This document shows positions 3,473 through 29,018 of a stretch of 32,000 bases of DNA, one piece after another. The notes beneath the pieces are model-generated. The model had not been told where the DNA came from. It did not search any database and saw nothing but the letters and a program-made list of their open reading frames with translations. The stretch is taken from contig CALRMX020000004.1 of assembly GCA_943369355.1 (NCBI GenBank), forward strand, positions 347,654 to 379,653, given 5' to 3'. The position numbers were made by a program, and so were the translations under genes. The stretch is from Chitinophaga pinensis (GTDB lineage Bacteria > Bacteroidota > Bacteroidia > UBA7662). Position 1 is the first letter of the stretch; each line of letters opens with the position of its first letter.

Positions 3473-4494
3473 AGAGCCCGCTAATCCAAAACCCGCTATT
3501 TCGTTTGCTGGCGCCAGTGGTGTTCGGCTTGCTGGTGTATTTGATGCTGCTGTTGCTCAACAATCAAGTAGGGCAGCTAAGCACTCTTTTCCGATCGCAG
3601 GAGATGTACATCTGCATACTACTGGCAGCGATGCAGTTTGAAAGTTTGCGCTTCCTGGTAGGTCGCAGTCGCCTAGGCGATGCAGGCAACGAGCGCCGCC
3701 GCTGGTGGCTGCTGGCTTTGGCCGGTAACGGCATCGCCACGACTTTGCTGCTCACCGCATTGTGGGCCTACTACGTTTACGTAATTGGCTTTGCCCCGTC
3801 GGGCAGCGAGCTGCTTCGTTTTGCAGGCCTCTACTTGCCTGGTGGGTGGTTTTACTTGGCCTTATACGGCAGCCAATTTTATTTGCAACGCCAAAATATG
3901 GCACAGCTCGAGCAAGAAGCCGAAGAGCTGGCACGTTTAGAAGAGGAATTCAACGATTTCAGTGCCGAATTACATCCTACACTTTTGTACGATGCCCTCG
4001 AACAGCTGCTCATACGCCTGCCCCATCAGTCGGCCGAGGCCGACCGCTACCTCCAGCTGCTGGCTAGCCACTACCGCCACCGGCTCATCAACCGGCAGGA
4101 GGAGGTGATTCCACTGAAATACGAGCTCGAGGCCGCGGAGACCTTTTTGGCACTGCTGCGCCCCATACGGCGGCAGCAGCTGGTACTTGTTTGCGACCCT
4201 TTACCCCATGATGAGCTGTTGTTGCCCCCCGGCGCAGTGTTTACCGCCATTTATTGGCTGTTGCGGCACGGCATCAGCGGCGAAAACGAGTCGCCGATAC
4301 AGCTGCAGCTCGAAGGCCAGCAGCTTACCCTTCGCTGGGCGCAGCCCGGACGACTTCAGCCCGATGCCGAAAGCAGCTATGCCCTCGACCGGCTTGTACG
4401 TTCGTATCGCCGGCTGAGCAGTCAGCAGCCCGCAACCCAGCTGGGCGACAACGAAATTTGTGTTCACCTGCCACTCCTTCACCTCCACACCTGA
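3469..4494 (+). CDS. LytS-type histidine-kinase paralog with degenerate catalytic motifs (possible pseudokinase/co-sensor)
   Basis: Its ATGA start/stop overlaps the upstream kinase (3469-3472). The architecture is the same: a membrane N-terminal half, a coiled EQEAEELARLEEEF segment and an H-box-like ELHPTLLYDALEQL. The N-box is replaced by YWLLRHGISGENE and the GxGL motif by SYALDRL. Confidence 0.65.
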   Translation: MKSPLIQNPLFRLLAPVVFGLLVYLMLLLLNNQVGQLSTLFRSQEMYICILLAAMQFESLRFLVGRSRLGDAGNERRRWWLLALAGNGIATTLLLTALWAYYVYVIGFAPSGSELLRFAGLYLPGGWFYLALYGSQFYLQRQNMAQLEQEAEELARLEEEFNDFSAELHPTLLYDALEQLLIRLPHQSAEADRYLQLLASHYRHRLINRQEEVIPLKYELEAAETFLALLRPIRRQQLVLVCDPLPHDELLLPPGAVFTAIYWLLRHGISGENESPIQLQLEGQQLTLRWAQPGRLQPDAESSYALDRLVRSYRRLSSQQPATQLGDNEICVHLPLLHLHT

Positions 4495-4495
4495 T

Positions 4496-5242
4496 ATGCG
4501 TATACTCATCATCGAAGACGAACAGCCCGCCGCCGAACGGCTCGAAACTTTGCTCCGGCAGCTGGTGCCTGGTCTGCAGCTGTTGGCGGTGCTTCGCCGG
4601 GTCGACGAGGCCATCGATTGGTTTGCCACCACCACTGCAGCCCCCGAGCTCATCTTCACCGATGTGCAACTGCCCGATGGACTCAGCTTTCAGATCTTTA
4701 ACCGCTTCCCACCGCAAGTACCTGTGATTTTTGTGACTGCTTTCGACCAATATGCACTCGACGCCTTTCGCGTAAACGGTATCGATTACTTGCTCAAACC
4801 CATCAATGTTACCGAGCTCGACCGTAGCCTGCAGCGCGCACGCAGCCGACAGCCCGCAGCCGCACAGCTCAGCGAGTTGGGCAAACAATGGGGACAAAAA
4901 GCTTACAAAAGCCGCTTCATGGTGAAACTTGGCGAACATCTGCGTGCGGTGAGCGTAGAACAAATCCTGTTGTTTTATGCCGAAGGACGAACAGTATTCT
5001 TGTACACCACCGAAGGGCGGAGGTTTATCGTCGACTTCACGCTCGACCAATTAGAAGATGCCCTCGACCCGGCTCGTTTTTACCGCATCAACCGCAGTTT
5101 TGTGGTAGCGCTACACGCCATACAAGAGGTGGTGGTGTATAGCAGTAGCCGCTTACGGATTGTTACACAACCTTCTTTTGCCGAAGAACTTATTGTGAGC
5201 CGCGAAAAGGTAGGGCCTTTCAAGAGTTGGTACGAAGGATAG
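4496..5242 (+). CDS. LytR/AlgR-family response regulator (receiver plus LytTR DNA-binding domain)
   Basis: MRILIIEDEQPAAERL...FTDVQLPDGLSF...PVIFVTAFDQYALDAF..NGIDYLLKP is a receiver domain. The C-terminal part (FMVKLGEHLRAVSVEQILLFYAEGRTVFLYT...RFYRINRSFVVAL) is LytTR-like. The ATG at 4496 lies 1 nt after the upstream TGA (4492-4494). Confidence 0.9.
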   Translation: MRILIIEDEQPAAERLETLLRQLVPGLQLLAVLRRVDEAIDWFATTTAAPELIFTDVQLPDGLSFQIFNRFPPQVPVIFVTAFDQYALDAFRVNGIDYLLKPINVTELDRSLQRARSRQPAAAQLSELGKQWGQKAYKSRFMVKLGEHLRAVSVEQILLFYAEGRTVFLYTTEGRRFIVDFTLDQLEDALDPARFYRINRSFVVALHAIQEVVVYSSSRLRIVTQPSFAEELIVSREKVGPFKSWYEG

Positions 5243-9059: not shown

Positions 9060-10382
9060 TCAATGGTTTAAAAGCCAATTGATTCCGAGCTGTAAAGAAA
9101 GTGCACCTACTCTAAGTTCGTTTACACCTAAGGGTCGTAGGGGATGATAATAATTCAAAACTGCCTGCAATTCAATGTTTTGGTTCCACGCATAGGAAGT
9201 TCCCAAGCCAACATTAAGGTGGGAAAGGCTAATACCCTCTTTCCCTAATCGGGTTCGATTCACGAAATCCCTATCGGTATCCTCGAAATAATATTTGAAC
9301 GATTCGCTCAGAACTACATTACCTAAAACTCCTCCTGCTACCTGAAAACGCCACATACGGTAGTCTAATAGGGTATATCGGAGCTGCATTGGCACCAACA
9401 AATGTGATGACATCACACCTATTTCATCTGGTTCTGTTGTCAAATTTGAATATCCTGGGAAAAGCAACTTTTGCGATTGTGAAACCAACGAAAGGTCGTC
9501 AATCTCATTTTTTTGTAAGCCATATTGTACCCCAGCTTCTAGTTGCCAATGGTGCCAATCTAGCTGAAAGGCTCCACCAACAAAAGCACCATAACGCGTG
9601 TCAAAATTGGCATAATCAAATGGAGACAGACCACTAAATCTCGGTCCAGCCGAAAAAAATACACTGGGTTGGTTTCGTTTGCTGTCGTCCATTTTTAGCA
9701 AATCCTCGTCGTGATAGGCTTGCTCCAAACTGTCGATCGTCATGGTTGAGTTTTCTGCCGCTGAACTTGGAACCAGACTCTGACTTTCTACTTTGGACGT
9801 AGTACTGTCATTGGCCCCTTTGTGTTGGTTAGTCGTTAGAAAAGTTGTCAGCGTATCATCAGTGCTTGCTTCATGAGGCTTGTGCTGTAGTAGGTCAAGC
9901 GAATTTTGCTGAACGGATGCGCTATTGGTTTGATTAGAATCCAAAGTAACATTGGAAGGCATCTCGGCTGAAGAAGTTGGGTACTTGGGGTAATTGTTGG
10001 GTAAATTAATGATTTGGCCAATAGCGGCTATTTTATCAGAAGCCCCAGCTTGGGCCAAAGCTCTTTCGCGCACATACAATACTATCGTATCACGAATTAA
10101 AAGTGTGTCGCGTGTCACCACCGTGTGCTGCACCACTACTGTATCACGATTATCCGCAACTACGCTCAATTGTTGAACATTGCTTCCAAACCAAGACCAT
10201 GCAACACCAAAAAGAAGGCTGCTGAATAGGTAAGGCATCCACCACATCTTCCAAAATGCCCAGGTAGGTGCTGGAAAAGTATTGACATAACTTTTCCAAT
10301 ACGACTTTTTATACGGCACCTCGTAGTTCTCGAGCTGCTGACGGATTTTGTCTTCGAAAGATTCCTTCCCCATCATGCCCAT
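9060..10382 (-). CDS. membrane protein downstream of the ECF sigma: anti-sigma-like N-terminus, one TM, Ser/Thr/Asn-rich linker, C-terminal beta-barrel-like domain
   Basis: It overlaps the sigma gene by 10 nt (10373-10382). The N-terminus SFEDKIRQQLENYEVPY is followed by the TM segment WWMPYLFSSLLFGVAWSWF. A low-complexity region spans residues 120-230. The C-terminal half has alternating beta-strand patterns (RFQVAGGVLGNVVL, LSLQLGINWLL). Confidence 0.65.
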   Translation of the reverse strand: MGMMGKESFEDKIRQQLENYEVPYKKSYWKSYVNTFPAPTWAFWKMWWMPYLFSSLLFGVAWSWFGSNVQQLSVVADNRDTVVVQHTVVTRDTLLIRDTIVLYVRERALAQAGASDKIAAIGQIINLPNNYPKYPTSSAEMPSNVTLDSNQTNSASVQQNSLDLLQHKPHEASTDDTLTTFLTTNQHKGANDSTTSKVESQSLVPSSAAENSTMTIDSLEQAYHDEDLLKMDDSKRNQPSVFFSAGPRFSGLSPFDYANFDTRYGAFVGGAFQLDWHHWQLEAGVQYGLQKNEIDDLSLVSQSQKLLFPGYSNLTTEPDEIGVMSSHLLVPMQLRYTLLDYRMWRFQVAGGVLGNVVLSESFKYYFEDTDRDFVNRTRLGKEGISLSHLNVGLGTSYAWNQNIELQAVLNYYHPLRPLGVNELRVGALSLQLGINWLLNH

Positions 10383-10942
10383 TTTTTAGATGACCTATAT
10401 TGCTCCAAAATCGACTGTTGGAGCTTCAGACGAGCTTTGTGATAATTTGACTTGGATGCCCCCTCGGTTATACCAAGCTGCGCTGCGATCTCTTTGTGCG
10501 AATAGCCGTCAATGGCAAAAAGTGAAAACACCAGTCGGTAGGCTGGACTCAACTGTTGAATCAAACGGATTAGCTCTTCTGCATGCAACCTGTCTAAGGT
10601 GTCGTTAATTTCTAATTCGAGCACATGTTCATCGTCTAGAAAGTCGGTTTCGGAGCTTATACGCTGCCGGAGATTGAAGTGATCGATGGCTGTATTCACC
10701 ACTATTCGACGCAACCATGTGGTGAATGCAAACGAGGGATCGTAGCTTTTTAGATAGTTAAACATCTTAAAAAAAGCCTCATTCACGATTTCCAAACTGT
10801 CGTCTCGGTCTGCGCCATAGCGCATAGCCACCGACATTGCATAAGGAAAGGCCATTTCGTATAGACGATTTTGTGCACGTCTACTGCCCGCAATGCATTT
10901 ATGTATGAGAGGAAGAAGGTCTTTACTTTCGTGCAGCTTCAT
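10373..10942 (-). CDS. RNA polymerase sigma-70 family (ECF-type) sigma factor
   Basis: Region 2 is visible in NRLYEMAFPYAMSVAMRYGADRDDSLEIVNEAFFKMFNYL...F.TWLRRIVVNTAIDHF. Region 4 is visible in PAYRLVFSLFAIDGYSHKEIAAQLGITEGASKSNYHKARLKLQ. The start could also be the upstream ATG at 10975. Confidence 0.9.
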   Translation of the reverse strand: MKLHESKDLLPLIHKCIAGSRRAQNRLYEMAFPYAMSVAMRYGADRDDSLEIVNEAFFKMFNYLKSYDPSFAFTTWLRRIVVNTAIDHFNLRQRISSETDFLDDEHVLELEINDTLDRLHAEELIRLIQQLSPAYRLVFSLFAIDGYSHKEIAAQLGITEGASKSNYHKARLKLQQSILEQYRSSKKWA

Positions 10943-11402
10943 GCTTGCGGCTTTACCTTTTGGGGGAAGGTCCAACAGCCTATACCTTCAAAATCACGAA
11001 AGGTTTCCTCGTGTCAGAAATTTATTTTTTGGCACCTCTCCAAAACAGCAAAATATCACCCCTTAAATCTCAGCAGGAAAGGAGCGTACTGCTGAAAAAA
11101 GACAAGCTTGTTGAAGCGTGCACAGCATTTGTATTAACCGCTTTTATCCTGATAAAACTTATGGCCATTATATCCTTGGATTTAAGACCAAAAAGATCAA
11201 CCCAATTACATGGATTCATCTAGACCGTTCTTCTAAATCAACGCCCCTTTGCAACTCTAGCGAGTAGACCTGCGGCTAATTGTATTTCACTCGACTTTGA
11301 ACCCATGTCATTAACCAGCCTGAACGCCGTACAACTATTTTTTATTACCAAGGCAACCAACAACGATTAACCTCCGTATAGGCCAGCAATAATCCAAACA
11401 CG

Positions 11403-13179: not shown

Positions 13180-13218
13180 CCTACAACTAAACCTCGCACC
13201 GCTATGCCGCGGTGCGGG
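13180..13218. repeat. 39-bp hairpin-containing direct repeat, copy 2 (abuts and overlaps the tRNA 3' end)
   Basis: It is identical to 13064-13102. Its last 8 nt (13211-13218) supply the tRNA acceptor 3' strand. Confidence 0.9.
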
Positions 13219-13294
13219 AGGGATTCGAACCCCCGGTACCTTGCGGTACACTTGATTTCGAATCAAGCACATTCGACCACTCTGACACCTCTCC
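13210..13294 (-). tRNA. tRNA-Ser (anticodon CGA), class II with long variable arm; acceptor and D stems imperfect, so possibly impaired
   Basis: The reverse strand reads GGAGAGG TG TCA GAGTGGTCGAA TGT G CTTGA TTCGAAA TCAAG TGTACCGCAAGGTACC GGGGG TTCGAAT CCCTC CCGCACC G. The anticodon stem, the variable arm (GTACC/GGTAC) and the T-loop TTCGAAT are good. The acceptor 3' strand CCGCACC pairs with GGAGAGG at only 5 of 7 positions. There is no encoded CCA. Confidence 0.7.
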
Positions 13295-13348
13295 AGGATC
13301 GGGGTGCAAATATATCAAGGAAGATTGGAATTCAATAAATGACGCTTA
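13277..13348. repeat. 72-bp direct repeat, copy A (tRNA-Ser 5' 18 nt, its promoter, and the 3' end of the GIY-YIG ORF)
   Basis: ccactctgacacctctccaggatcggggtgcaaatatatcaaggaagattggaattcaataaatgacgctta. It differs from copy B at a single position (c/t at 13300 vs 13678). Confidence 0.9.
13307..13335 (-). promoter_or_regulatory. Bacteroidota-type promoter (-33 TTG / -7 TATATTTG) for tRNA-Ser
   Basis: The reverse strand reads TTG-N18-TATATTTG-N12-GGAGAGG (tRNA +1). TATATTTG matches the TAnnTTTG -7 consensus exactly. Confidence 0.6.
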
Positions 13349-13572
13349 ATCCAAGCCCTGCCCCAACCAGACTTTAAATAAGTCTCCCTTTTACGAGCTA
13401 AAGTTCTATTTGGGAATTCTTCGTAGTGTAAAAGCGTCCATGGCCCTTTACCTTTCGTCCAACGATGCTTGCCTTTTTCTTGGTTATGTTCTTTAAAGCG
13501 CCGGTTTAAATCGGATGTTTCACCGATGTAAAGCTGCTTTTCAACATTCACGAGTATGTAAACAAAATGCAT
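13315..13572 (-). CDS. GIY-YIG nuclease superfamily protein (small UPF0213/YhbQ-like type)
   Basis: From the internal ATG at 13572 the sequence is MHFVYILVNVEKQLYIGETSDLNRRFKEHN...TKGKGPWTLLHYEEFPNRTLARKRETYLKS. This shows the GIY(VYIL)...YIG...R...H...E motif order. The longer track ORF (to 13638) adds an Arg/Pro-rich non-homologous extension. Confidence 0.8.
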   Translation of the reverse strand: MHFVYILVNVEKQLYIGETSDLNRRFKEHNQEKGKHRWTKGKGPWTLLHYEEFPNRTLARKRETYLKSGWGRAWIKRHLLNSNLP

Positions 13573-13654
13573 ATACAATTCTTGAATACATTCGCCACGT
13601 GACGCAGCTGGCTGCGTACGTGGTCGCGTTTGCCGCAAAACGGCAGCACGCGAA

Positions 13655-13897: not shown

Positions 13898-15673
13898 GTG
13901 ACCCACCGAATATTGTATCGGCTGCTGCTAATTATGCTCTTAGCAGGGTTAGATGCAAGTGCCCAAATAGATTTCGATGGCATGTTGGCTGCTCCAGCCG
14001 ACAGTCCACCTCGCGACCGCATGCTGGAACAGCGTATCGCCAACAGAATTGCAGAATATTACAGCCGAGATTTGTTTTTGGTACATGCCTGGGCCGATCC
14101 CGAAGAAGCCCGAGAGCTCAATGAGCGGAATATGGTTTTGCCCGGCATGCCGCTGCAACTCACCGACGACAACCTCCCCATCGAACCCGATGCGGCCAGA
14201 GGACCTCGCACGCTGCTCCTCTACCTCGATACCAGCTTTACCCCAAGTGACGTACGCTTTGTAGAGGTTTTGTTGCGGGGCATCGACAGTTGGGACCAAA
14301 GCCGTGGCGATAAAGTAGAACTTATCCCCATCGTTTTCCCGCGTAAAAAAGACTGGACCGACTGGCTCAAAGAATTGCCCAAAAGCGTAGCTACACCTCA
14401 GCCCGCACCACAACAGCCCAATTACCCGGTTTATTTACCATCCCCCGAAAAAGAAGATCCAGCCCCAGCGCCAATACCGGCCGAAACCATACCCATTTGG
14501 CAATGGGCTGTACTTATTGGTGGTTTAATTGTCCTCATAGGCATTTTTGTGTTGCTTGGCATGTGGATTCAAAAACGATCAACTCAAGAGCTCATTCGTT
14601 TGGCAACCCAGCCGCAACAACGCCCTGAGGTGTTTAGTCTGCATCCTGAACCTAAAACCGACACTGTAAGTACAGCTGAGCCGGTGGTAGTAAACACTTC
14701 GGGATGGGAACCCCATGCGGCACGCGACTTTGTGATTAGTCAAACCATTGGCGAGCCTGCACGTACGGCTAAAATATTAGAAGGCTGGTCGCGACAAGGC
14801 GAAGAAGGCCTCAAACGTGCCGCTGCATCGTTGGCAGCCAGTAACGACCAATTGCTGTTGCTCATGCGGGGCAAAATGGATGCAACCGCCGAAACCGCCA
14901 TTTCTCAAGAGCTTCAACCGCTACGCACGCAGCAAAAAGAACAGTTTGCTGATGCCCTCATTGCATTGGCCAACGCATTGTCGTACCAAGGTCGCGACTT
15001 GGAGCCGGTGAACCATTTTGGATTTTTATCGCAGCTCGACGATCAGTCGCTCATGCATTTATTCAAAGAGGAGGCACCACGTTTGGTAGCGCTTCTCATT
15101 GCACAGTTGCCCACCGACCAGGCCAAACGTTTACTCCGCCAATTCGATGCACCTACACGTTCGCAGGTATTGGTGAATTTGGGCAGTATCAGTCAACTGC
15201 CGTTGAGTCTGTACCAAGAAATAGGTCAGCATTTCGCTCGCAAGGCGATGGAGGTTAAGCGTTTGCAAGGTCTTCCGTTTGATGGCCAACAGGTGCTTGT
15301 ACAATTGCTCGAAAATTTCGACGAAGACGAGCAGAACAACATCATCGAACACATGGCCATTAGCGACCCACAGCAGGCCGAAACCACCAACAAACGCCTC
15401 GTTCGTTTCAGCAGATTGCGCGACTACCCAGCCAATGTATTGCAAAAGGCTTGGCTCGAAGTGGATACAGAATTGATGGTACAAGCATTGGCCGGACTCG
15501 ACAAACAAATTGCTCGTCATGTATTGAGCACCCGCGCCAAACGCGAACGCGACCTCATATTATCAGAGCTGGAAAACGAAGCAGACATATCGCCCGCACT
15601 CACCAGCAAGGCAAGGAAACACATGCTCACGCTCCTGAAAAACTACTTAAAAGAACAACAATGGTCCGCCTGA
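13898..15673 (+). CDS. membrane-anchored FliG-like protein: signal peptide, periplasmic domain, Pro-rich linker, one TM, cytoplasmic FliG N/M/C-like domains
   Basis: The GTG start gives MTHRILYRLLLIMLLAGLDASAQ. The TM segment IWQWAVLIGGLIVLIGIFVLLGMWI is followed by QKRS. The C-terminal roughly 315 aa align by eye with FliG. EEAPRLVALLIAQLPTDQAKRLLRQF resembles the EHPQTIALILSYL... M-domain. DGQQVLVQLLENFDEDEQNNIIEHMAISDPQQAE...LVRFSRL...VLQKAWLEVDTELMVQALAGLDKQIARHVLSTRAKRERDLILSELE resembles the GG..AAEILN.LD...ILE.I.E.DP.LAE.I...MF.FEDL...IQ..LREVD...LA.ALKGA.E.L.EKI..NMS.RAAE.L.EDLE C-domain. Confidence 0.8.
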   Translation: MTHRILYRLLLIMLLAGLDASAQIDFDGMLAAPADSPPRDRMLEQRIANRIAEYYSRDLFLVHAWADPEEARELNERNMVLPGMPLQLTDDNLPIEPDAARGPRTLLLYLDTSFTPSDVRFVEVLLRGIDSWDQSRGDKVELIPIVFPRKKDWTDWLKELPKSVATPQPAPQQPNYPVYLPSPEKEDPAPAPIPAETIPIWQWAVLIGGLIVLIGIFVLLGMWIQKRSTQELIRLATQPQQRPEVFSLHPEPKTDTVSTAEPVVVNTSGWEPHAARDFVISQTIGEPARTAKILEGWSRQGEEGLKRAAASLAASNDQLLLLMRGKMDATAETAISQELQPLRTQQKEQFADALIALANALSYQGRDLEPVNHFGFLSQLDDQSLMHLFKEEAPRLVALLIAQLPTDQAKRLLRQFDAPTRSQVLVNLGSISQLPLSLYQEIGQHFARKAMEVKRLQGLPFDGQQVLVQLLENFDEDEQNNIIEHMAISDPQQAETTNKRLVRFSRLRDYPANVLQKAWLEVDTELMVQALAGLDKQIARHVLSTRAKRERDLILSELENEADISPALTSKARKHMLTLLKNYLKEQQWSA

Positions 15674-16716
15674 TTTTCGCTCTAAGCCTTTGTTTGTTGT
15701 CGTGGGAGGTACTGGCTCAAGATACTCCACGTCCTTCCGATGCCCAGGTATTGCGCATACGTTCTGTTGAGCGCATCATCAGTCAGCTACGTGAAAGCCT
15801 CCCCACCTATTCCGAAGATTGTCAGCGTATCGCCTTGATGATGCCCGATTTTAAGGAGAAGAACGTAAGCGCTGAAGAGGCCATGCTCATTCGTAATCAG
15901 CTTGCCCAGCAAGTTCAAAAAACGGCTTTTACGGTGGTAGACGTTCCCGAATTCCACGAATATCGACTTACACGGGTTTTTAGTTCCGATAGCGGCTTGC
16001 TGTATCAGCGGAATTCCCCCACACGCTTACTGCGAACCAACTCAGAAGCAACCGAACTGCTGGTAAAAAAGCACAAACTCGACGGCATCATTTACACGCA
16101 AATCACCTATGATTCACTCATTGGGCATACCGTTAGCATGCAATTGGTGCAGCAACGTTCGCGCGAGATAATTTGGAACCGCACCTTCCACGCCAATATA
16201 GGCATGGTCAGAGCACGAGAAAGCCAACATCTCGTTGCCTTGGGAATGGGCATGAATAGCGTGCGCTTCGTGAATGGTCTAGGAGGATACCGCGTAGCAC
16301 TTCCCAGTGTACATATCCGATGGATGTGGCGCCAACCCGTCAATGAGGCCCGTACGGTGAACTTGTTTACACTCACCCAGTTCAGCATGTACCAAGCAAA
16401 CTTTAAAGCCAACGACAGCTTGAGCTTTAATTTTTGGCGCCCTGTTCCTGAACTTGGGCTCGGATATTCACTTTCCTTTTTGAATAAAAAGAATAGTAGT
16501 GATTATTGGTTCGAGGGATATCAATCGTTTACACTACATTTTTTCAACCGTATGCGAACTAGCATCAACCAGGGTTTGTCGTTCAATTTTACGCGAAATC
16601 TGGTAGTGATGGGCGAAGTAAGCTTCATAACGGGCGCGCCTGAGTTGCACAACTATAACAATGTGGTCACTTTAAATCAGTTTCAGTATGCAGTACGGCT
16701 CAACTACCGTTTTTAA
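15661..16716 (+). CDS. outer-membrane protein: signal peptide, periplasmic alpha/beta domain, C-terminal beta-barrel ending in an aromatic residue
   Basis: The internal ATG at 15661 of track ORF 15451..16716 gives MVRLIFALSLCLLSWEVLAQ. It overlaps the FliG-like stop by 13 nt. The C-terminal half has alternating beta-strand patterns and ends ...QYAVRLNYRF, an OMP beta-signal-like terminal Phe. Confidence 0.75.
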   Translation: MVRLIFALSLCLLSWEVLAQDTPRPSDAQVLRIRSVERIISQLRESLPTYSEDCQRIALMMPDFKEKNVSAEEAMLIRNQLAQQVQKTAFTVVDVPEFHEYRLTRVFSSDSGLLYQRNSPTRLLRTNSEATELLVKKHKLDGIIYTQITYDSLIGHTVSMQLVQQRSREIIWNRTFHANIGMVRARESQHLVALGMGMNSVRFVNGLGGYRVALPSVHIRWMWRQPVNEARTVNLFTLTQFSMYQANFKANDSLSFNFWRPVPELGLGYSLSFLNKKNSSDYWFEGYQSFTLHFFNRMRTSINQGLSFNFTRNLVVMGEVSFITGAPELHNYNNVVTLNQFQYAVRLNYRF

Positions 16717-16720
16717 GTTG

Positions 16721-17242
16721 ATGCTGCTGCTGCTACTAGCAGCCGCATGTGCCAAAAAGTCTACGCCCGAGGCCGAAGTCGCTCCCGTTCGTCGTACTGT
16801 GGTACAGAAAAAAGGACCTGAACCTTTACGGATAAAATACTCGAACCAAACCACCCAAATGGATCTTGCCTTGGAAATGGAAGATGAGGTGATTGTGGAA
16901 ATGCGCGGCATTCGGCTAGATTCAACACAACTCGTTGCTGACAGCACCGTTCTCGCAAATCAGCAGCAGGAACAACAAGAACGTCAGCTTTTGAGTGTGC
17001 AACGCGCGCTCAAAAATTACCGCATGGCGCAGGAGGCCTTACTCCGCAAACAATACGACAAAGCCATGCTATATATCGATGCTTGTTTGCTTGAAGGCGA
17101 AACCGCTGAAGCTTTGGCTTTTAAGGGGTCGGTTTTTTACCTGCAAGGCAATAAAGTGGAGGCCAAAAAATTGTGGCAGAAGGCTAGGCAACTCGACCCT
17201 GATATGCCCGATGATGTGTATTACGAAACCCGAAAAAACTGA
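16721..17242 (+). CDS. TPR-containing lipoprotein
   Basis: The ATG at 16721, 4 nt after the upstream TAA, gives MLLLLLAAACAKKS with a lipobox LAAAC. The C-terminal part is TPR-like: YDKAMLYIDACLLEGETAEALAFKGSVFYLQGNKVEAKKLWQKARQLDPD. Confidence 0.7.
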   Translation: MLLLLLAAACAKKSTPEAEVAPVRRTVVQKKGPEPLRIKYSNQTTQMDLALEMEDEVIVEMRGIRLDSTQLVADSTVLANQQQEQQERQLLSVQRALKNYRMAQEALLRKQYDKAMLYIDACLLEGETAEALAFKGSVFYLQGNKVEAKKLWQKARQLDPDMPDDVYYETRKN

Positions 17243-18072
17243 TGCGCTTCTCCATTTATACAACCGTTGCTGCACTTCTCTCCTTTGTATTGGTGATTCT
17301 AGGTGCACTCGATACGGGTGAGGTAATCGACATTGATGGATATTTACCGGCCACATTGAGTGGAATGACCTATTTAAACATTCCAAGCTTATTCATTGTA
17401 TTGGGTGGCGTACTCACGGGTACTTTTGTGATGTTTCCATTCCATTCGGTATTGAACACGCTTGGCGCCGTGCGGTATTTATTTAGTCACAGCAATACCA
17501 AACGTTCGGTGATGTACGATGCTACCAACAGTTTGCTTGAAGTTACCGCTGCCTACAAAAAAGATAAATCCAGCTTCCGCGATAAGTTGCGTACTACTTT
17601 CAACGACCCCTACGTGCTTACCTTGGAAGAATTGCTCGAGACCAACTACCCGGCAGAAGAAATGCGGAAATTGGGAGAATCGCGCATAGAAAATAGTTTT
17701 TCAACGAATACCACGCAGGCCGACATATTATCGTCGATGGCTACTTCGGCACCAGCATTTGGCATGCTGGGAACCATCTTAGGCCTCATCGCCATGCTTC
17801 GCAATCTCGAAGATCCCTCAGCTGTAGGTCCTTCGTTGGCTGTAGCCCTAATTACTACTTTGTATGGCGTTATCTTCGCCAACCTTGTATTTCTTCCTCT
17901 TTCAAAAAAAATAAGGGCACATGCCATGCACAATTTCGAATGGCAAACCATTGTCCTCGAAGCCTTTATCATGTTGCGCGAAAATCGGTCGGGTATGTAT
18001 ATGAAAGACCGTCTTTTTGCCCTCATCGATCATCAGCAAATAGCAGAACCCGAAGAAAAAGCGGCAAAATAG
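17242..18072 (+). CDS. motA: MotA/PomA-type stator protein (MotA/TolQ/ExbB proton-channel family, 4 TM with long cytoplasmic loop)
   Basis: A TGATG stop/start overlap lies at 17240-17244. It has four TM segments with a loop of about 100 aa between TM2 and TM3. It carries the signatures SAPAFGMLGTILGLIAML (conserved Pro, TM3) and LAVALITTLYGVIFANLVFLPLSKKI (conserved Pro, TM4). Confidence 0.9.
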   Translation: MRFSIYTTVAALLSFVLVILGALDTGEVIDIDGYLPATLSGMTYLNIPSLFIVLGGVLTGTFVMFPFHSVLNTLGAVRYLFSHSNTKRSVMYDATNSLLEVTAAYKKDKSSFRDKLRTTFNDPYVLTLEELLETNYPAEEMRKLGESRIENSFSTNTTQADILSSMATSAPAFGMLGTILGLIAMLRNLEDPSAVGPSLAVALITTLYGVIFANLVFLPLSKKIRAHAMHNFEWQTIVLEAFIMLRENRSGMYMKDRLFALIDHQQIAEPEEKAAK

Positions 18073-18081
18073 CAGAGGATC

Positions 18082-18735
18082 ATGCGGATTTTGAAGCCCC
18101 AGAACGAAGATGAACAGAACTGGTTGATTACCTACAGCGACCTGATTACCCTCGTTCTTTGCTTTTTTGTGATGCTGTACACCACTGCTGAAGTAAAAGT
18201 GAGTGTTTGGGACGAGCTAAAGGCTGGGTTTAATGCCGAAATGAAAAAGCAGCAGCGTCCGAAAGATTACCTCAAGCAAGCGGTAAGAGAGCTGGACAGC
18301 TTACGCAGAACCTTACCCGATTCAGATGCCTTTGTGCTTCAGTTAAACAAAGAGGGTTTGGAGATTAACTTCGTCAGTAAACTCCTTTTCCCAAGTGCCG
18401 AAGCACAACTGTTACCCGAAGGTGAACAGGTACTGCGTCAGGTGGCCGGGCTCCTTGGACGTCTCAACGACCGTCCATACGAGTACGAAGTTCAGGGCCA
18501 TACCGACGATCTGCCCATCAATACGCCCATATTTCCATCGAATTGGGAGTTAAGCTCAGCACGAGCAACTACGGTGGTTCGCGCTTTGATTGCCTCAGGT
18601 TTAGATCCAGAAAAATGCCGTGCTTCGGGTTTTGCCGAAACCCGCCCTGAATTGCCCAATCGCGACCCTAAAGGCGTGGCAATACCCGAAAATCAAGCCG
18701 CCAACCGCAGAGTGGTCGTTTTGGTGCGTCGCTAA
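18082..18735 (+). CDS. motB: MotB/PomB-type stator protein (single TM with conserved Asp, plus OmpA-like peptidoglycan-binding domain)
   Basis: NWLITYSDLITLVLCFFVML is the MotB TM segment with the invariant Asp. The C-terminus GHTDDLPINTPIFPSNWELSSARATTVVRAL...GFAETRP...NRRVVVLV is OmpA/MotB-like. It lies 9 nt after motA with an upstream aGAGGA. Confidence 0.9.
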   Translation: MRILKPQNEDEQNWLITYSDLITLVLCFFVMLYTTAEVKVSVWDELKAGFNAEMKKQQRPKDYLKQAVRELDSLRRTLPDSDAFVLQLNKEGLEINFVSKLLFPSAEAQLLPEGEQVLRQVAGLLGRLNDRPYEYEVQGHTDDLPINTPIFPSNWELSSARATTVVRALIASGLDPEKCRASGFAETRPELPNRDPKGVAIPENQAANRRVVVLVRR

Positions 18736-23208: not shown

Positions 23209-26022
23209 CTAACGAATCAATTGTATTTCTTTTCGAAAGACTTTCCACGTACTTGTTTCGCCTCGGTATTGCAGTACAACGAGGTAGTTTCCTGCCGGAC
23301 AAACTTGACCGTTGACGTTACCATCCCAATAATGTTCAAAATTAGTTGTACTAAAAACTTCTTGGCCCCAACGATTAAATACTTTCAGCTGAAGTTGGTC
23401 GGCACCCAATAAAACATAGGATAGCCTTTCGTTGACGCCATCACCATTGGGAGAAAAGATATTGGGGAAAAGGAGAACTAGCGGCTCATTGACCCGAATC
23501 ACCCGAATAAAACTATCAACACAAGCTGTAAGACTGTCTTGTACTACTAGCTTAATTGCTTTATTCCCTCTACGTTCGAACGAAATTTGAAGGTCTTTGT
23601 CCATGGACACAGTAACACTATTGGTGTCCCATCGATAAGCAGTTGCGTTGACACTGTAGTTTATTCCATTTAGGAGTTCAAATACCTCCAAAGTATCTCT
23701 AGTCAGTGAAAAGTGCGCTTTTAAAGGCCTAAGCGTTAGTTGTATTGGTTGACTTGCAAAAATGCTATCACAAGAACCAAATTGGTACCGAGCAAGTGCT
23801 CTGTACTCTCCTGTTCTGTTTACCAACCTTACGCCCCCTTGGGTTTGTCCGATTGAAGAACCGTTGAAAATCCATTCAACTTGTTGAGGTGGTGGAATAA
23901 CTTGTAAGGCAACTACACTATCTCTACATAAAGATGCATTCGGATGTAATTGTAAACGTGCATCCGGGAATTCGTCTTTTGAAAACCGTATGGTATCGCT
24001 CAGCTGACGACAACCATTTGTATCGATAGCTAAGCAATAATATGATCCAGTATCGGATATACTCAAGCTGGTACCTGAAGATAATACCAAAGCAGAACCT
24101 AAACGGTACCACGAAAAAGATACTAAATTCGAATTCAGCACACGTAAATCAACGGTATGCCCTTCGCAAAAAGAGGTATTGGAAGTGGTGTTGAGACTTA
24201 ATTGGTAAGGAGGAAAATTCCGTACTTCTAGCACATTAGTACTATCGTTAAAGCAAGGTGAGCCTCGGTAACGCAAATAATAACGACCAGGTTGGTGTAT
24301 TCGTAAAAAGGTATCCACGGCATTGGCTATTGGAACGCCATTCCGTATCCATTGGTAGCTCATGCCTAAAATCCTAGGGACCGCTATTAGCAGTGTGTCG
24401 GTGCTACATTTTCTTAAACTATCGGGTAAAACACCTTTCGGATTAACCGCCGAGGCATCACGCACAAAAATAGAATCTACATAAGTTGAGCATCCTGGGA
24501 TGGTCATTTCAACGATATACCAACCTAATCGTGCTGTATTGTACATAAACGGCCTTGGATTTTGCAAAGTATCGTTGAAGCCATTTGGACCTGTCCACCG
24601 ATAATGTGCCTGTGGGTAATACGCAGCGCTAAGTTTTACGGAATCACCCATACAAATTGGACTATTCACATCAATACCCGTGGCAAATTCGCTGAAGTTC
24701 GAAAAATAAGCGTACCTCGCTTGCGAATTGGTACCACCGTGTAATACCGCCATTTGAAATACATCGCTAGTGTTGCGAACCAGTAGAGCATTATTTGCCG
24801 CCAATATTGAATTTGGAACTAAATAGCGTGCAACTAGCCAATTATTGCCGCCTCCAGTAACTGGCAAAAAAGTTGAAGCTGGAATTAAGTTTGGTACTCC
24901 ATTCAAAAGAAAGTTTGTTTCACCACCACGATTAACTGTTAAAAGAATTATGAGCGTATCGGTTCCTGAACGAACAACACCCACTTCGGGTGAACCTGTA
25001 CAATACACAGGTGGGAGCTGCGCAGCTCCCATTTGGCAACCAATACCCGATACATGAAATACTGATATGGGCTCGTTTGCTGAGATAAATACATTTGGAC
25101 TATCTAGTGCGAAAGTAAAGGTGGACCCTGCCTGTGGTAATGTAACAAACGGTGTTGAATTAGCGCGCAAGTAAACACTTGTGTTAGGGGCGGTAGTTGT
25201 AATACTAATCAACTCACCCAGAGCCGATAATCCTCCATTCACAGCAATATAACCTCTTCCTAGATTCTCAATTGGTAATATTTGATCACCAATAAGCTCT
25301 AGGCAACCAGTACCAAATCCGATAGCATCTTGTTTAACAGTTATCGCTATTGGATGATTACTCGAAACATAACTTCCAGCCGGAATCTGTGCTCCAACGG
25401 TAGTATCCGAAACAACGCTGTAGGTTTGCCCTTCATGAAGTAAAACTTGAAACGGAACCCCTGCTGCATGACCCAACACATTTACTGAGGGAGTGATTGA
25501 AACCAAGGTACTATCGCGTGTAGCTACTATGTCGAAAGAAGAATTTGCTCCAAGTATAGCTGCTCGGTCGGGATAAAAGAGATTTTGCATGGGTATTCGG
25601 AATGCTGTACCCAAGGCATTTTTACCCTTTAAGCTGAATATTTCCGCATTACACCCACAACTACCTCCCCCAACTTCCCAATAAGCATTTATTCTCTTGT
25701 CGGACCAGACGTATATGCCCCATCTCTGAATCTGATTAGGCACTTTTAATTCCAAAGAGTCAATAAACGGAGTCAAATCAATGGTCACCGTTTGGTTTGG
25801 CGCTATACTTCTTACAATGGAAGTAAACCAGTTTACCCCCGGCACCCTTACGTGTACAAAGGCACCTTGAGCATGAGCGGTTAAGCGAAGTAAGATGGGT
25901 CTATCCCGTTGATCGGTAGTTTGTTCCACCTCTGGAACAGCAAACCAAAACAAGGTGTCGACCTGTCCATAGGTTTGTGTATAGGAAAAAAAGATGCCTA
26001 AAAGTACAATCCATCTTTTCAT
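23209..26022 (-). CDS. T9SS type-B C-terminal sorting domain (gliding motility-associated CTD) cell-surface protein
   Basis: It has the signal peptide MKRWIVLLGIFFSYTQTYGQ. Internal Ig-like modules include Y.W...G.......PG.Y........C (YRWTGPNG, YQWIRNGV, FSWYRLGS). The C-terminus is FPNIFSPNGDGVNERL...LKVFNRWGQEVF....WDG...G...P.G.Y, the type-B (CHU_C-like) sorting domain. Confidence 0.85.
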   Translation of the reverse strand: MKRWIVLLGIFFSYTQTYGQVDTLFWFAVPEVEQTTDQRDRPILLRLTAHAQGAFVHVRVPGVNWFTSIVRSIAPNQTVTIDLTPFIDSLELKVPNQIQRWGIYVWSDKRINAYWEVGGGSCGCNAEIFSLKGKNALGTAFRIPMQNLFYPDRAAILGANSSFDIVATRDSTLVSITPSVNVLGHAAGVPFQVLLHEGQTYSVVSDTTVGAQIPAGSYVSSNHPIAITVKQDAIGFGTGCLELIGDQILPIENLGRGYIAVNGGLSALGELISITTTAPNTSVYLRANSTPFVTLPQAGSTFTFALDSPNVFISANEPISVFHVSGIGCQMGAAQLPPVYCTGSPEVGVVRSGTDTLIILLTVNRGGETNFLLNGVPNLIPASTFLPVTGGGNNWLVARYLVPNSILAANNALLVRNTSDVFQMAVLHGGTNSQARYAYFSNFSEFATGIDVNSPICMGDSVKLSAAYYPQAHYRWTGPNGFNDTLQNPRPFMYNTARLGWYIVEMTIPGCSTYVDSIFVRDASAVNPKGVLPDSLRKCSTDTLLIAVPRILGMSYQWIRNGVPIANAVDTFLRIHQPGRYYLRYRGSPCFNDSTNVLEVRNFPPYQLSLNTTSNTSFCEGHTVDLRVLNSNLVSFSWYRLGSALVLSSGTSLSISDTGSYYCLAIDTNGCRQLSDTIRFSKDEFPDARLQLHPNASLCRDSVVALQVIPPPQQVEWIFNGSSIGQTQGGVRLVNRTGEYRALARYQFGSCDSIFASQPIQLTLRPLKAHFSLTRDTLEVFELLNGINYSVNATAYRWDTNSVTVSMDKDLQISFERRGNKAIKLVVQDSLTACVDSFIRVIRVNEPLVLLFPNIFSPNGDGVNERLSYVLLGADQLQLKVFNRWGQEVFSTTNFEHYWDGNVNGQVCPAGNYLVVLQYRGETSTWKVFRKEIQLIR

Positions 26023-26110
26023 GCATCTAAACTACATACTAGAGCATTAGAAATGTCATGAAATTAACACAAAACACGTTTAAGGCAATCAAGCTGTGTC
26101 CAAATTCACC

Positions 26111-28090
26111 TTACTTATCCCTTAAAGTCTCCCAAACCACATTCACCCGGCGGTTACGCGATGCAGGAACGCCGAACATCGTTACAGAAGGGCCAGTTCC
26201 CTTTGTTTTCACTTTCCGCTTTTTCCGTTCAAACAAAGGAAAATATTCATCACTAACAATCAGCTGTCCGTTGTCAATATATTTTTTGAGCGCTCCTTGA
26301 TTCCAGTTTACGATGTAGTTTTTTAATACTGCGCCGCGTTTAAGTGCCAATTCCTTATTGAACTTTTCATATACACTCTGCGATGTATAAACACCCATAT
26401 ACACCTTGATCTTTCGTCCGGCTCGGAGAGTAGAATCCAATCGAAACGGGAAAAGCTCCAATTCACGCATTCCACGTTCAATATCAACAAACAAAGCGTC
26501 TAGCTCGGGCTGGCTGCTCGAAGATTTAGCGTAGTATACATGTTTCCCCTTTAAATACCCTTTATAGTAATTAGAATAATCTCTTAAACTATCACGCAAA
26601 TTCATTTCTTTACCCGGCTCACCATTCTGAAAAAACACCGTTAAAAATCCCGAAGTACTTAATACAGGCTTTATTTCTGTCAACTTAAATTTAGCAGTCA
26701 TGATGCCATTAACGGTATCAAAACTAGCCTCCTCATGAATGTCGTAATATCCATTACATCTTATTGACACATTCCACGAGGGATATGGCTTTAGAAAACT
26801 GCCTAAATCCACAATACCACCTATTATATCTACCACAGTTGAATCCCCAGAAATTGAGTTTCTCGCAACTAGATGTATGGTATCCTGCTTGGTTGTAGAA
26901 GTACCTGAGTGTCTATCAACTTCTAATCGAAATGCCATGGGGATTTCTTTGGGTTTTCGAATGAAAGTGTATAAATCGTCATTGAATTTTTCTCCACTTC
27001 TATTTGTGGTATAATAGCCTTTGACAGAATCTGACCATGTAATCCCGAAATCATCATAAACAGAGTTGATTGGCTCAGGTAATAATCTTCTTTCACCGTC
27101 CTTAAATTCTACGATATCTAAACCACCATAATTATCTGCGTCATTGGTTACGTAATAGAGCGTGTTATTTGGTCCTATACTTGGGAAAACTTCATCGTAA
27201 GCAGAATTGATATCACTATTCAGCAACTCAAGGTTTCCCCATCCAGGTTTCAGCCATTTTACACGATATAGGTCAAAACCCCCTAAACCATTGGGCATGT
27301 TGGACGAAAAGTATAAATAATCACCTGATGAATCGAAACACGGATGTTGGGTTGAATATTTTGTCGAGTTAAATATAAATTCTTGCGGTTCTGACCAAAT
27401 CTGATTTACTCTTTGATAAACTTCCAAATAAAGAAGTTGTTCTCCCTTTGCATTCAGCGAACTCCTATTTTTTGTTGTTACCAGTATGCTACTGTCCTTC
27501 GAGATAACCAAAGGCCCCTCGTGTAAGTCAGAACCAAATCCCCTTGGAAACCCAGCTATTGGATAAAATTTACCCAATGTATCTGCGAGATAAAATTTCA
27601 AATATGGAAGACCTGTAAACTCATAAATGGGCACTTTCTTTTTCTTCGATTCAAAACGACTCGATGAAAACAAGATTTTTCCGTCTTTATAAAAAGGCAT
27701 TAAATCTTCTTGAGCTGTATTAAAAGACACCGGATAAACCTGGTATTCCCACTCATTTATTAAAATATATTTATTGTTTATATTTAGAAGTGGCGATTTA
27801 CTTGTTTGTTGAGCACCTGCATTTGAATACCTTTTCTTTTGCACTAGGTTTAAATCGCGTTGGGTTTTATATGCCAGGTCATAATATAAAAAAGCACTAT
27901 CCATTTTATCCATTGAGTAAAATAAATCAGCATAATCCAGAATACTTGATGAATCTCCATTTTGAAGTTGAATTCTGTAAGCAGACAAATCCTTGATCCT
28001 CCTTTTCGGATATTTTAAGTCAGAAGAAGGTTGCGCGTCAACGGATAAAAATAGCGTCAACAGCTGCAGCAATAAACCAATTCTTTTCAT
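26111..28090 (-). CDS. OmpA-family protein with TolB-like/PD40 beta-propeller region (T9SS-cluster-associated)
   Basis: It has the signal peptide MKRIGLLLQLLTLFLSVDAQ. Repeated E..P.fs.DG..lyFsSnr..g.GG.DLY-type segments are present (HPCFDSSGDYLYFSSNMPNGLGGFDLYRV; VFPSIGPNNTLYYVTNDADNYGGLDIVEF). The divergent OmpA-like C-terminus ends SRNRRVNVVW. It sits directly downstream of porP/sprF, as in known type-B cargo clusters. Confidence 0.7.
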   Translation of the reverse strand: MKRIGLLLQLLTLFLSVDAQPSSDLKYPKRRIKDLSAYRIQLQNGDSSSILDYADLFYSMDKMDSAFLYYDLAYKTQRDLNLVQKKRYSNAGAQQTSKSPLLNINNKYILINEWEYQVYPVSFNTAQEDLMPFYKDGKILFSSSRFESKKKKVPIYEFTGLPYLKFYLADTLGKFYPIAGFPRGFGSDLHEGPLVISKDSSILVTTKNRSSLNAKGEQLLYLEVYQRVNQIWSEPQEFIFNSTKYSTQHPCFDSSGDYLYFSSNMPNGLGGFDLYRVKWLKPGWGNLELLNSDINSAYDEVFPSIGPNNTLYYVTNDADNYGGLDIVEFKDGERRLLPEPINSVYDDFGITWSDSVKGYYTTNRSGEKFNDDLYTFIRKPKEIPMAFRLEVDRHSGTSTTKQDTIHLVARNSISGDSTVVDIIGGIVDLGSFLKPYPSWNVSIRCNGYYDIHEEASFDTVNGIMTAKFKLTEIKPVLSTSGFLTVFFQNGEPGKEMNLRDSLRDYSNYYKGYLKGKHVYYAKSSSSQPELDALFVDIERGMRELELFPFRLDSTLRAGRKIKVYMGVYTSQSVYEKFNKELALKRGAVLKNYIVNWNQGALKKYIDNGQLIVSDEYFPLFERKKRKVKTKGTGPSVTMFGVPASRNRRVNVVWETLRDK

Positions 28091-28097
28091 CTCAGGC

Positions 28098-29018
28098 TTA
28101 CATAAAATATCTAGGCGACCGGATGAACGGCCGGAACTTAGATTCCCAATAAAACCTCAATGCGAATTCATGGGTGTGAAGTGACCCTTGTTGGATAGCG
28201 TTAATTGGAAATTCGAATTGATATCCCAAATACCACTTTTCTGAAATTCTATAACCTGTGAGTAGACCAATAGAATTAGATAATCGGAACATCGGCCCAA
28301 AATCATACTTATTTTGATATTTGAATATCGCATGCAAATCCAGTTGAGCCGGATTGCCAATTCCTTTTCTCAACATACAGCTACTCATTAATTCCCAACC
28401 GTCAGCTAATGGAAAAGTAATTCCACCGTAAGCAAACATACTCGTTGGCAATACGGAATAAATTGGCATACCAATATCCACTGTTCTGGTAATAGCTTGT
28501 GGTACCGCCACACCAATAAAAGCCTCTTTTGAGTAAAGCAAGGCTCCAAACCCCAAATTTCCTGCAAAACCAGAAATTAAATTTCCATTCAAATTGGGAT
28601 CGCCATATTCAATATTTCTGAGGTCATCAAAATTTGTTGAAGTATTCGTGCCTTTTACTCTTATTCCCGTAGATAGCGCCCAACCATTCTCAATACGTAA
28701 GGTATAGGATACGTCCATCTGAATTTTCGTTTCAGTAATTGGTCCAACCTTATCCTGATAAATTCCTACAGCGCCACCTAATAAACGGGCTAATTTAAAA
28801 TTCGCAAAAAACGAAGTGGTTACAGGTGCTCCTTCAAATCCAACCCATTGGTTTCGGTGCAAGAAACCTGCTTGATTATCTTCAAAAACTCCTGCTTGCG
28901 CGGGATTTATTATAGTGCTATTAAAGACGTACTGACCAAAAAATGGATCATATTGACCCTCAACGACCATAGTAAATACTGTCCAATTCAAAAAAATTAA
29001 TAACAAATGTCTTTTCAT
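28098..29018 (-). CDS. PorP/SprF family type IX secretion system membrane protein
   Basis: The N-terminus QYDPFFGQYVFNSTIINPAQAG matches the family's Q.DP.fSQY..n....NPA.aG signature. The body has beta-barrel-like character and the length is about 306 aa. Confidence 0.85.
   Translation of the reverse strand: MKRHLLLIFLNWTVFTMVVEGQYDPFFGQYVFNSTIINPAQAGVFEDNQAGFLHRNQWVGFEGAPVTTSFFANFKLARLLGGAVGIYQDKVGPITETKIQMDVSYTLRIENGWALSTGIRVKGTNTSTNFDDLRNIEYGDPNLNGNLISGFAGNLGFGALLYSKEAFIGVAVPQAITRTVDIGMPIYSVLPTSMFAYGGITFPLADGWELMSSCMLRKGIGNPAQLDLHAIFKYQNKYDFGPMFRLSNSIGLLTGYRISEKWYLGYQFEFPINAIQQGSLHTHEFALRFYWESKFRPFIRSPRYFM

Follow-up and report, generated by a model that had tools for sequence, protein, structure and literature searches.

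We analysed a 32,000-nucleotide stretch of contig CALRMX020000004.1 (Chitinophaga pinensis, assembly GCA_943369355.1), hereafter the window, and found that a cassette of five genes on its + strand (g1 to g5, 13898-18735) encodes homologues of the flagellar rotor and stator. A non-flagellar FliG-MotAB machine had been proposed for these genes from the sequence alone (the original prediction). Composition, conservation, selection and context support this reading; its rotation and output we infer from homology. By homology, g1 is a single-pass inner-membrane protein that combines a periplasmic domain of the type of the third ring-building motif (RBM3) of FliF with a complete cytoplasmic FliG, and g4 and g5 form, in the same operon, a flagellar-type, peptidoglycan-anchored and plug-gated MotAB pair. 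What is new is the presence of a flagellar rotor-stator module in a non-flagellar five-gene architecture, including a FliF part that the original prediction had not seen. To our knowledge, FliG and FliF have been regarded as flagellum-specific, save for distant MgtE and SctJ relatives, and in textbooks flagellar torque is generated where FliG meets MotA.

Domain architecture of g1

The g1 gene (13898-15673, + strand) encodes a protein of 591 residues, and Pfam, phmmer, AlphaFold2 (AF2), Foldseek and family profiles all contributed to its assignment. It is predicted to be a type I membrane protein, with its N-terminus outside and its C-terminus inside. A signal peptide (residues 1-23, 13898-13966), read from the sequence as ending in DASA with Q following, aligns with AQ-ending signal peptides across the family. 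It is followed by a periplasmic, split ring-building motif like RBM3 of FliF (residues ~37-148, 14006-14341), with an invariant LPG loop and an RGD...FP motif, and by a putative transmembrane helix (residues ~200-225, 14495-14572) that coincides with a family-conserved hydrophobic segment, lies within a helix at residues 200-237 of the AF2 model, and is followed by Lys/Arg residues on the cytoplasmic side. The cytoplasmic part comprises the FliG N, M and C domains (residues ~272-586, 14711-15655), within which the equivalent of the torque helix (residues 548-560, KRERDLILSELEN, 15539-15577) was located by alignment to solved FliG structures. For the start of g1, the GTG at 13898 has the support of an alignment in which 39 relatives show a full signal peptide there; in public gene calls the protein is shorter (579 residues), beginning at the internal ATG 13934 and losing most of the signal peptide.

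The original prediction had aligned the C-terminal half of g1 by eye with three FliG domains, and matches from Pfam, phmmer, Foldseek and the family profiles were all significant. FliG_M scored 37.9 bits (cutoff 25), FliG_C 40.1 bits (cutoff 23.3) and MgtE_N 27.5 bits. When phmmer was run against the PDB sequences, residues 278-581 aligned with residues 11-313 of Salmonella FliG, and Aquifex FliG matched g1 with an E value of 6e-11. The AF2 model (mean predicted local distance difference test score, pLDDT, 79.6) had full-length FliG 3hjl as its top Foldseek match (313 columns, E 1.8e-9). Against TIGR00207, the equivalog model for FliG, g1 reached 47.9 bits and remained below the cutoff of 226.7.

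An exhaustive search of 1.84 billion cluster representatives returned 201 relatives of g1 at E < 1e-10, and most of the best 150 of these were 580-720 residues long and aligned over their full length. The g1 architecture was found in at least 136 clusters at 50% identity, and the best 150 include 134 long proteins, 133 of them with the RBM3-like N-terminal domain. An alignment of 40 members showed a fixed order of signal peptide, periplasmic domain, tether, transmembrane helix with basic residues, and FliG N/M/C. In this alignment the periplasmic domain spans ~110-150 residues with invariant L-P-G and R-G-D...F-P motifs, and the tether that joins it to the membrane is long, of low complexity and rich in Pro, Glu and Gln. 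Pfam detected FliG_C and FliG_M in all 40 members and FliG_N in 39.

The original prediction had reported that no fliF was present, which did not hold, as the periplasmic domain of g1 is homologous to RBM3 of FliF by three independent routes. A profile of this domain searched against all PDB sequences (E < 10) gave three matches, every one a FliF, which map onto the two halves of RBM3 and include the RGD...F motif just before the second transmembrane helix of FliF. The AF2 model has a split alpha-beta-[insert]-beta-alpha-beta topology in this region, and after FliG its Foldseek matches were FliF MS-ring/RBM3 chains (probability 0.84-0.99) and then PrgK/SctJ. Additionally, the Pfam model YscJ_FliF_C gave matches in 17 of the 40 members of the family, at best with E 4e-6. 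Together, these homologies and the model indicate that g1 is a natural FliF(RBM3)-FliG fusion. No RBM1 or RBM2 was found in g1, whose periplasmic region holds a single ring-building motif of ~110 residues, and YscJ_FliF (PF01514) was not matched. The full beta-collar of FliF is missing as well, the RBM3 insert being merely ~37 residues in the window protein.

We compared the charged residues of the Escherichia coli FliG torque helix region with their equivalents in g1 at 41 loci. The R281 equivalent is Arg at 40 of them (R549 in the window) and the D289 equivalent is Glu at 38 (E557 in the window). The K264 equivalent is Arg or Lys at 28 of the 41 and Ala in the window; the position of D288 holds Ser, and that of R297 is not conserved. 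The FliM-binding motif EHPQ(R) of FliG_M is lost from the family, an invariant Glu (41/41) being followed by S-D-E, and the window protein reads E-A-P-R. This loss of the FliM docking site matches the absence of fliM and fliN described below.

The stator pair, the envelope partners and the operon layout

The g4 gene (17242-18072, + strand) encodes a flagellar-type MotA/PomA stator A subunit of 276 residues, and g5 (18082-18735, + strand) a MotB-type B subunit of 217 residues with the channel Asp (D20), a plug and an OmpA-like peptidoglycan-binding domain. Both had been named as such in the original prediction, and the profile searches agree. Pfam MotA_ExbB matched g4 with 81.4 bits, and the single g4 sequence as well as a profile of 12 sequences retrieved from the PDB flagellar MotA/PomA only (E 2e-38 to 3e-20 for the profile), in alignments that are near full length and include the cytoplasmic domain between the second and third transmembrane helices; no ExbB or TolQ entry of the PDB matched either query. 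The best NCBIfam models for g4 were MotP and PomA, both under cutoff (MotP 115 bits, cutoff 394). Puente-Lelievre et al. (PMC12505986) set flagellar-type stators ('FIT') apart from generic ion transporters, and by its homologies g4 belongs to the flagellar type. The equivalent of MotA R90 is Lys or Arg at 36 of 38 loci (K106 in the window). For g5, MotB_plug scored 49.5 bits and OmpA 55.5 bits, NCBIfam MotD scored 149 bits (under its cutoff of 283), and the channel Asp is present at all 38 loci.

The two genes between g1 and the stator pair encode non-flagellar envelope proteins. The g2 gene (15661-16716, + strand) encodes a secreted protein of 351 residues whose two domains were recognised from AF2, Foldseek and an alignment of orthologues. 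It matched no Pfam, NCBIfam or PADLOC family, Pfam was likewise empty for 14 orthologues, and a g2 profile against the PDB sequences gave chance matches to factor XIII only. The protein has a signal peptide and a C-terminal Phe that is invariant in 14 of 14 aligned orthologues, as is typical of the beta-signal of outer-membrane proteins. In the AF2 model, built from a 12-row alignment (pLDDT 55), an alpha/beta domain at the N-terminus precedes ~9 long strands (residues 189-350). Foldseek related the N-terminal part to the TolB N-domain and LpoB (4q6z_A, target-normalised TM-score, TMt, 0.57), and the C-terminal part to the 8-stranded barrels of the OmpA transmembrane domain, NspA, OmpX and Ail. 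These matches make it probable, although not established, that g2 consists of a periplasmic TolB-N/LpoB-like domain and a small 8-stranded outer-membrane barrel. The outer-membrane beta-barrel of the original prediction is thus a probable part of g2, but that prediction had missed the second, N-terminal alpha/beta domain beside it.

The g3 gene encodes a tetratricopeptide repeat (TPR) lipoprotein (16688-17242, + strand; 184 residues from the ATG at 16688, alternative start 16721). TPR_2 scored 29.3 bits (cutoff 27), and the 12 orthologues share a short beta-rich region and a C-terminal module of ~2 TPRs. At least 90% of them have a Cys behind the signal peptide, in agreement with the lipoprotein originally proposed. 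Neither g2 nor g3 matched, at the level of sequence, the families of the Vibrio and Campylobacter accessory motor scaffolds.

All five open reading frames (ORFs), listed at 13898-15673, 15661-16716, 16688/16721-17242, 17242-18072 and 18082-18735 on the + strand, are intact and translationally coupled. The 13-nucleotide overlap between g1 and g2, the TGATG at 17240-17244 in which the stop of g3 and the start of g4 have one base in common, and the 9-nucleotide gap ahead of 18082 were as originally described. The start of g2 is the ATG at 15661, internal to a longer ORF listed from 15451. For g3, the ATG at 16688 is more probably the start than 16721: it adds a positively charged n-region ahead of the h-region and lipobox Cys, gene calls on three near-identical contigs in public records use it, and the ORFs of g3 orthologues overlap g2 likewise. 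With this start, the 4-nucleotide gap that had been proposed between g2 and g3 becomes an overlap of 29 nucleotides. Scans for promoters and terminators gave signals at or below the shuffled expectation.

Conservation, context and the proposed machine

Two peptide patterns taken from Balneolaceae-like members, a choice that biases the outcome to Balneolaceae, were run over the GTDB species, each represented by one genome, and gave 42 loci. These lie mainly in metagenome-assembled genomes (MAGs) and complete chromosomes of Balneolaceae, and also in Gracilimonas tropica DSM 19535, in Fibrobacteres/Fibrobacteria MAGs and in one Chitinophagales MAG. Homologues of the five window proteins were found by phmmer in identical order at ~36 of the 42 loci, including one from Fibrobacteria (L041). 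Further distant loci (representatives P0022, P0009, P0019, P0010 and P0047) hold g1, a g2-like gene (~355 residues, no Pfam family), a TPR gene, MotA and MotB, and profile hidden Markov models confirmed the homology of g2 (E 1e-23 to 1e-64) and g3 in them. The homology of these same-order genes indicates that the cassette is not a chance grouping. When the flanking ORFs were clustered, the five genes alone were common to the loci, and the flanks were lineage-specific and of unrelated functions. Gene order and the catalytic and torque residues are kept at ~25% identity over phylum-level distances. Conservation as a unit had been suggested as a check on the original prediction, and we observed it, with more than 40 loci in all, in Balneolaceae, Fibrobacteres/Fibrobacteria and other Bacteroidota. 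Furthermore, all five genes are under strong purifying selection, the ratio of nonsynonymous to synonymous differences (pN/pS) relative to the nearest relative being 0.03-0.09 in each (pS 0.15-0.40).

A second type of cassette, which has no g2, was found at two loci, in Balneola (L043, 5946-13909) and Chitinophagales (L046, 4953-10648), and probably at a third (L047). Its first gene encodes a protein of ~1000 residues with an usher-like barrel, CarboxypepD_reg-like domains and a g3-like C-terminal TPR region. The genes that come next are g1, one for a small TPR protein, MotA, and one for a MotB of 578 residues with a SPOR (septal peptidoglycan-binding) domain. Genes for MORN_2-repeat proteins (~530-570 residues) adjoin the cassette at two unrelated loci (L048 and L051), and rhomboid protease genes lie near it at two others (L047 and L052); these neighbours may be a coincidence or a loose association. 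Public annotations list members of the cassette only as FliG ('FliG C-terminal domain-containing protein' and 'flagellar motor switch protein FliG'), as 'chemotaxis protein MotA/MotB', as 'TPR repeat protein' or as 'hypothetical'.

Apart from g1, g4 and g5, no flagellar genes were found in the window, in keeping with the original report that it holds no fliM, fliN, flhA or flg genes. The genes beside related cassettes that were annotated with Pfam included none either, a result that does not extend to a gene-by-gene scan around the 42 genome loci. The window encodes a PorP/SprF protein and two CHU_C cargo proteins of the type IX secretion system (T9SS), so the T9SS hallmarks that had been read from it are indeed there, and Bacteroidota of the Cytophagia type are without flagella (Hahnke et al. 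2016). Gracilimonas tropica DSM 19535, which carries the cassette (L020), is described as non-motile, with 17 COG-N genes, and is listed by Galisteo et al. (2023) among the Balneolaceae that have no KEGG flagellar-assembly genes. Broken flagellar pathways have been reported in Balneolaceae and read as gradual loss, and no gliding has been reported in them. As these organisms carry the cassette, the link to gliding or the T9SS that the context had originally suggested is not supported.

We lean, if only slightly, towards a machine in which an ion-driven MotAB stator turns a ring of FliF-FliG fusion subunits that is coupled to outer-membrane and periplasmic partners. In such a machine, g1 would oligomerise through RBM3 into a periplasmic ring like the S-ring, with a built-in 1:1 FliG ring under the membrane. 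Units of the MotA5B2 type, anchored to peptidoglycan, would conduct H+ or Na+, and the ion flow would turn MotA5 around MotB2 so that the cytoplasmic domains of MotA push the torque helix of FliG_C. The g1 ring would thereby turn in the inner membrane, a step for which the conserved equivalents of R281 and D289 in g1 and of R90 in MotA argue; with these three, the most important residues of stator-rotor electrostatics would be kept. It is known that engineered FliF-FliG fusions assemble rings and that Salmonella carrying them keep a biased, suppressible rotation (PMC7355467 and PMC11481574).

The steps beyond the inner membrane are proposed more tentatively. The periplasmic ring may stand on the long Pro/Glu-rich tether, with the FliF beta-collar replaced by the invariant LPG(L)P loop, and may engage the g3 lipoprotein and the periplasmic domain of g2; TPRs bind extended peptides. 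Most tentative of all is the part then played by g2 and g3, which could form the output, working at the outer membrane, or else a holding scaffold for the stators, analogous to the stator-positioning cages of MotX/MotY and PflA/PflB.

Several points weigh against a rotating ring of this kind. Only two of the five classical charged residues of FliG that we compared are kept, and the column equivalent to MotA E98 is variable (Asp in the window); most g4 orthologues have an acidic cluster one helical turn past this column, and the window g4 does not. No plausible load for a rotating ring was found. The low-confidence model of g2 and the variant cassette that has no g2 show that the outer-membrane partner is neither firmly modelled nor fixed. 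Ring formation, stator docking and rotation are drawn from homology. Balneola vulgaris and some of its relatives are flagellated, and the absence of flagellar genes rests on the 32-kb window, the annotated flanks and the report on G. tropica.

The same parts could instead serve an envelope maintenance or division device like Tol-Pal, in which MotAB powers a conformational cycle rather than continuous rotation and passes it through g1 to a TolB-N-like outer-membrane protein and a CpoB-like TPR protein, for outer-membrane tethering, invagination or lipid homeostasis. We judge this unlikely, even though the parts do parallel tolQ-tolR-tolA-tolB-pal-cpoB (an ion-driven 5:2 motor, an inner-membrane-anchored partner, a TolB-N/LpoB-like fold, a TPR protein and an OmpA-like peptidoglycan binder), the SPOR domain on MotB of the variant cassette is a septal peptidoglycan binder, and the occurrence of the cassette in organisms that neither glide nor move would fit a housekeeping role. 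The motor is of the MotA/FliG type and not TolQR/TolA: g4 matched only MotA/PomA in the PDB profile search, and its TolQ score of 23.5 bits is far from the cutoff of 221. Its partner is a FliG with a torque helix, so that the expected output is at the cytoplasmic face of MotA and not the periplasmic output of TolR/ExbD. Moreover, neither a domain like TolA or TonB nor the beta-propeller of TolB is present in the cassette, and the TolB-N-like fold of g2 comes from the model with a pLDDT of 55. By its proteins, the cassette is not a Tol-Pal system proper.

It is improbable that the cassette is an alternative or accessory rotor-stator set of a genuine flagellum in flagellated hosts. Every core part has a flagellar homologue, public pipelines label g1 'flagellar motor switch protein FliG', and the flagellated Balneola vulgaris and relatives would accommodate such a role. 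However, the window host has T9SS markers, Bacteroidota of the Cytophagia type have no flagella, and the non-motile G. tropica has the cassette and no flagellar-assembly genes. The g1 protein has neither the RBM1/RBM2 that house the export gate nor the FliM-binding motif, fli, flg and flh genes are missing beside the cassette in the window and in the annotated flanks of related loci, and the NCBIfam equivalog cutoffs for FliG, MotA and MotB were missed by a wide margin. We give very little credence to a sensor or defence system like Zorya, in which the MotAB-like unit would monitor the envelope and signal to the cytoplasm through g1. Zorya is a precedent for 5:2 motors in non-motility roles, and g5 matches the PADLOC models for ZorB (best 71.9 bits), but these matches reflect generic MotB/OmpA similarity and PADLOC had no match for g1-g4. 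Identity with Zorya was rejected, since there is no ZorA with a long cytoplasmic tail and there are no ZorC or ZorD effectors; nor were there genes for nucleases or other effectors. The synteny is stable and chromosomal in Balneolaceae, which is not island-like, and purifying selection is strong and uniform. A functionless, decaying remnant of an ancestral flagellar system, for which the broken flagellar pathways of Balneolaceae might speak, is effectively refuted by the low pN/pS of all five genes and by the synteny. The five ORFs are intact and coupled, order and catalytic and torque residues have been retained despite low identity, and two non-flagellar partner genes (g2 and g3) co-evolve with the module.

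Taken further, the rotary machine that we favour would be an unrecognised nanomachine widespread in the Fibrobacteres-Chlorobi-Bacteroidetes group, namely a minimal RBM3-FliG ring driven by MotAB and connected to an outer-membrane barrel and a TPR lipoprotein rather than to a secretion system and filament; we regard this broader proposal as finely balanced, tipping a little to the doubtful side. If true, the rotor-stator pair would be seen in a new role, a seventh class would join the known 5:2-motor systems, and the flagellar torque module would be able to exist and work apart from type III secretion, which bears on the evolutionary assembly of the motor. Ring assembly and torque could also be studied in a system that is minimal by nature, with a single rotor polypeptide and neither switch nor export gate, and motor function in the absence of a secretion system would become testable in the cultured G. 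tropica DSM 19535. A systematic mis-annotation would be corrected in addition, the genes having been recorded as flagellar or chemotaxis genes, which confuses genome-based predictions of motility.

Neighbouring genes and comparison with known systems

Directly upstream of the cassette, on the opposite strand, lie a tRNA-Ser(CGA) gene (13209-13294, - strand) and a gene for a small GIY-YIG protein (13315-13638, - strand). A tRNA beside a self-contained cassette could mark the boundary of an island, although the same context was found in close relatives. The GC content is uneven along the window, at 0.54-0.58 in the first 5 kb, where LytTR two-component genes lie, and 0.35-0.39 in the T9SS cargo region; around the cassette (14000-16000), g1 has 0.50-0.525 and its neighbours 0.40-0.45. 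The two-component genes (2381-5242, + strand) are a tandem pair of His_kinase (PF06580) sensor genes followed by a LytTR response regulator, the second sensor scoring 24.7 bits, just under the Pfam cutoff of 25.2. At 9060-10975 (- strand), an extracytoplasmic function (ECF) sigma factor gene overlaps by 10 nucleotides a gene of 440 codons whose product matches OMP_b-brl_2 at its C-terminus; the sigma factor is paired, unusually, with what may be an anti-sigma/outer-membrane barrel protein. The T9SS cargo cluster (23209-31982, - strand) encodes a 937-residue IgGFc_binding/Ig_7/CHU_C protein, a 659-residue protein that has no Pfam family, the PorP/SprF protein (198 bits) and a 982-residue CHU_C protein with a weak cohesin-like match. 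Other genes of the window encode PepSY-like, GSCFA, metallo-beta-lactamase (MBL)-rhodanese and TauE proteins.

A full-text literature search, in which subscription journals were thinly covered so that an earlier description is possible, found no description of the cassette. Philip et al. described no such system, and others have remarked on the puzzle of non-motile species that have rotor proteins yet no filament (PMC12199754).

The closest known system is the flagellar motor's core, to which homology at the level of domains is secure. The cassette shares with it RBM3, the FliG N, M and C domains, a torque helix with R281 and D289 equivalents, a MotA with a large cytoplasmic domain, and a MotB with channel Asp, plug and OmpA-like anchor; the 1:1 stoichiometry of FliF to FliG would here be hard-wired through the fusion. 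Unlike flagellar FliF, g1 lacks RBM1 and RBM2, its beta-collar is shrunk to a short loop, LPG(L)P, the first transmembrane helix is replaced by a cleaved signal peptide, and a long low-complexity tether leads from RBM3 to the membrane. Unlike flagellar FliG, it has lost the EHPQR motif for binding FliM. No genes for FliM/FliN, export apparatus, rod, hook or filament lie near the cassette, its partners are a probable outer-membrane barrel/TolB-N-like protein and a TPR lipoprotein, and it is found in non-motile organisms. Because the curated cutoffs were missed, RBM1/2 and EHPQR are absent, and no flagellar gene context was seen in the window or the annotated flanks, its proteins do not qualify as FliG, FliF, MotA or MotB equivalogs.

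The only natural FliF-FliG fusion that our literature search found described is that of Chlamydiaceae (Bergeron 2016, PMC4768692), a protein of ~330 residues with RBM2, an RBM-like domain and FliG_M only, which is not accompanied by MotAB and is believed to act together with the injectisome. Like g1, it joins a FliF-type periplasmic region through a transmembrane helix to a cytoplasmic FliG-like domain in a non-flagellated bacterium; unlike it, g1 has RBM3 and a complete FliG N/M/C and is operonic with MotAB.

High-torque flagellar motors carry scaffolds, such as MotX/MotY and FlgO/FlgP/FlgT of Vibrio and PflA/PflB of Campylobacter, in which TPR/Sel1-like and outer-membrane-associated LpoB/FlgO-clan proteins accompany MotB-type stators. 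The likeness of g2 and g3 to these proteins is an analogy that may serve as a lead only. The original prediction had recognised no described 5:2-motor system in the cassette, and the cassette lacks the defining features of Tol-Pal, Zorya, GldLM and AglRQS-Glt. Identity with GldLM or Glt was rejected, as g4 and g5 match MotA_ExbB and MotB_plug and not GldL and GldM, and a GltJ match of 13 bits (cutoff 450) is noise from a low-complexity linker. The cassette would thus resemble GldLM, AglRQS-Glt and ZorAB in being a non-flagellar, ion-driven motor of the MotAB superfamily that works across the envelope, and it differs from all of them in its use of a FliG/FliF homologue.

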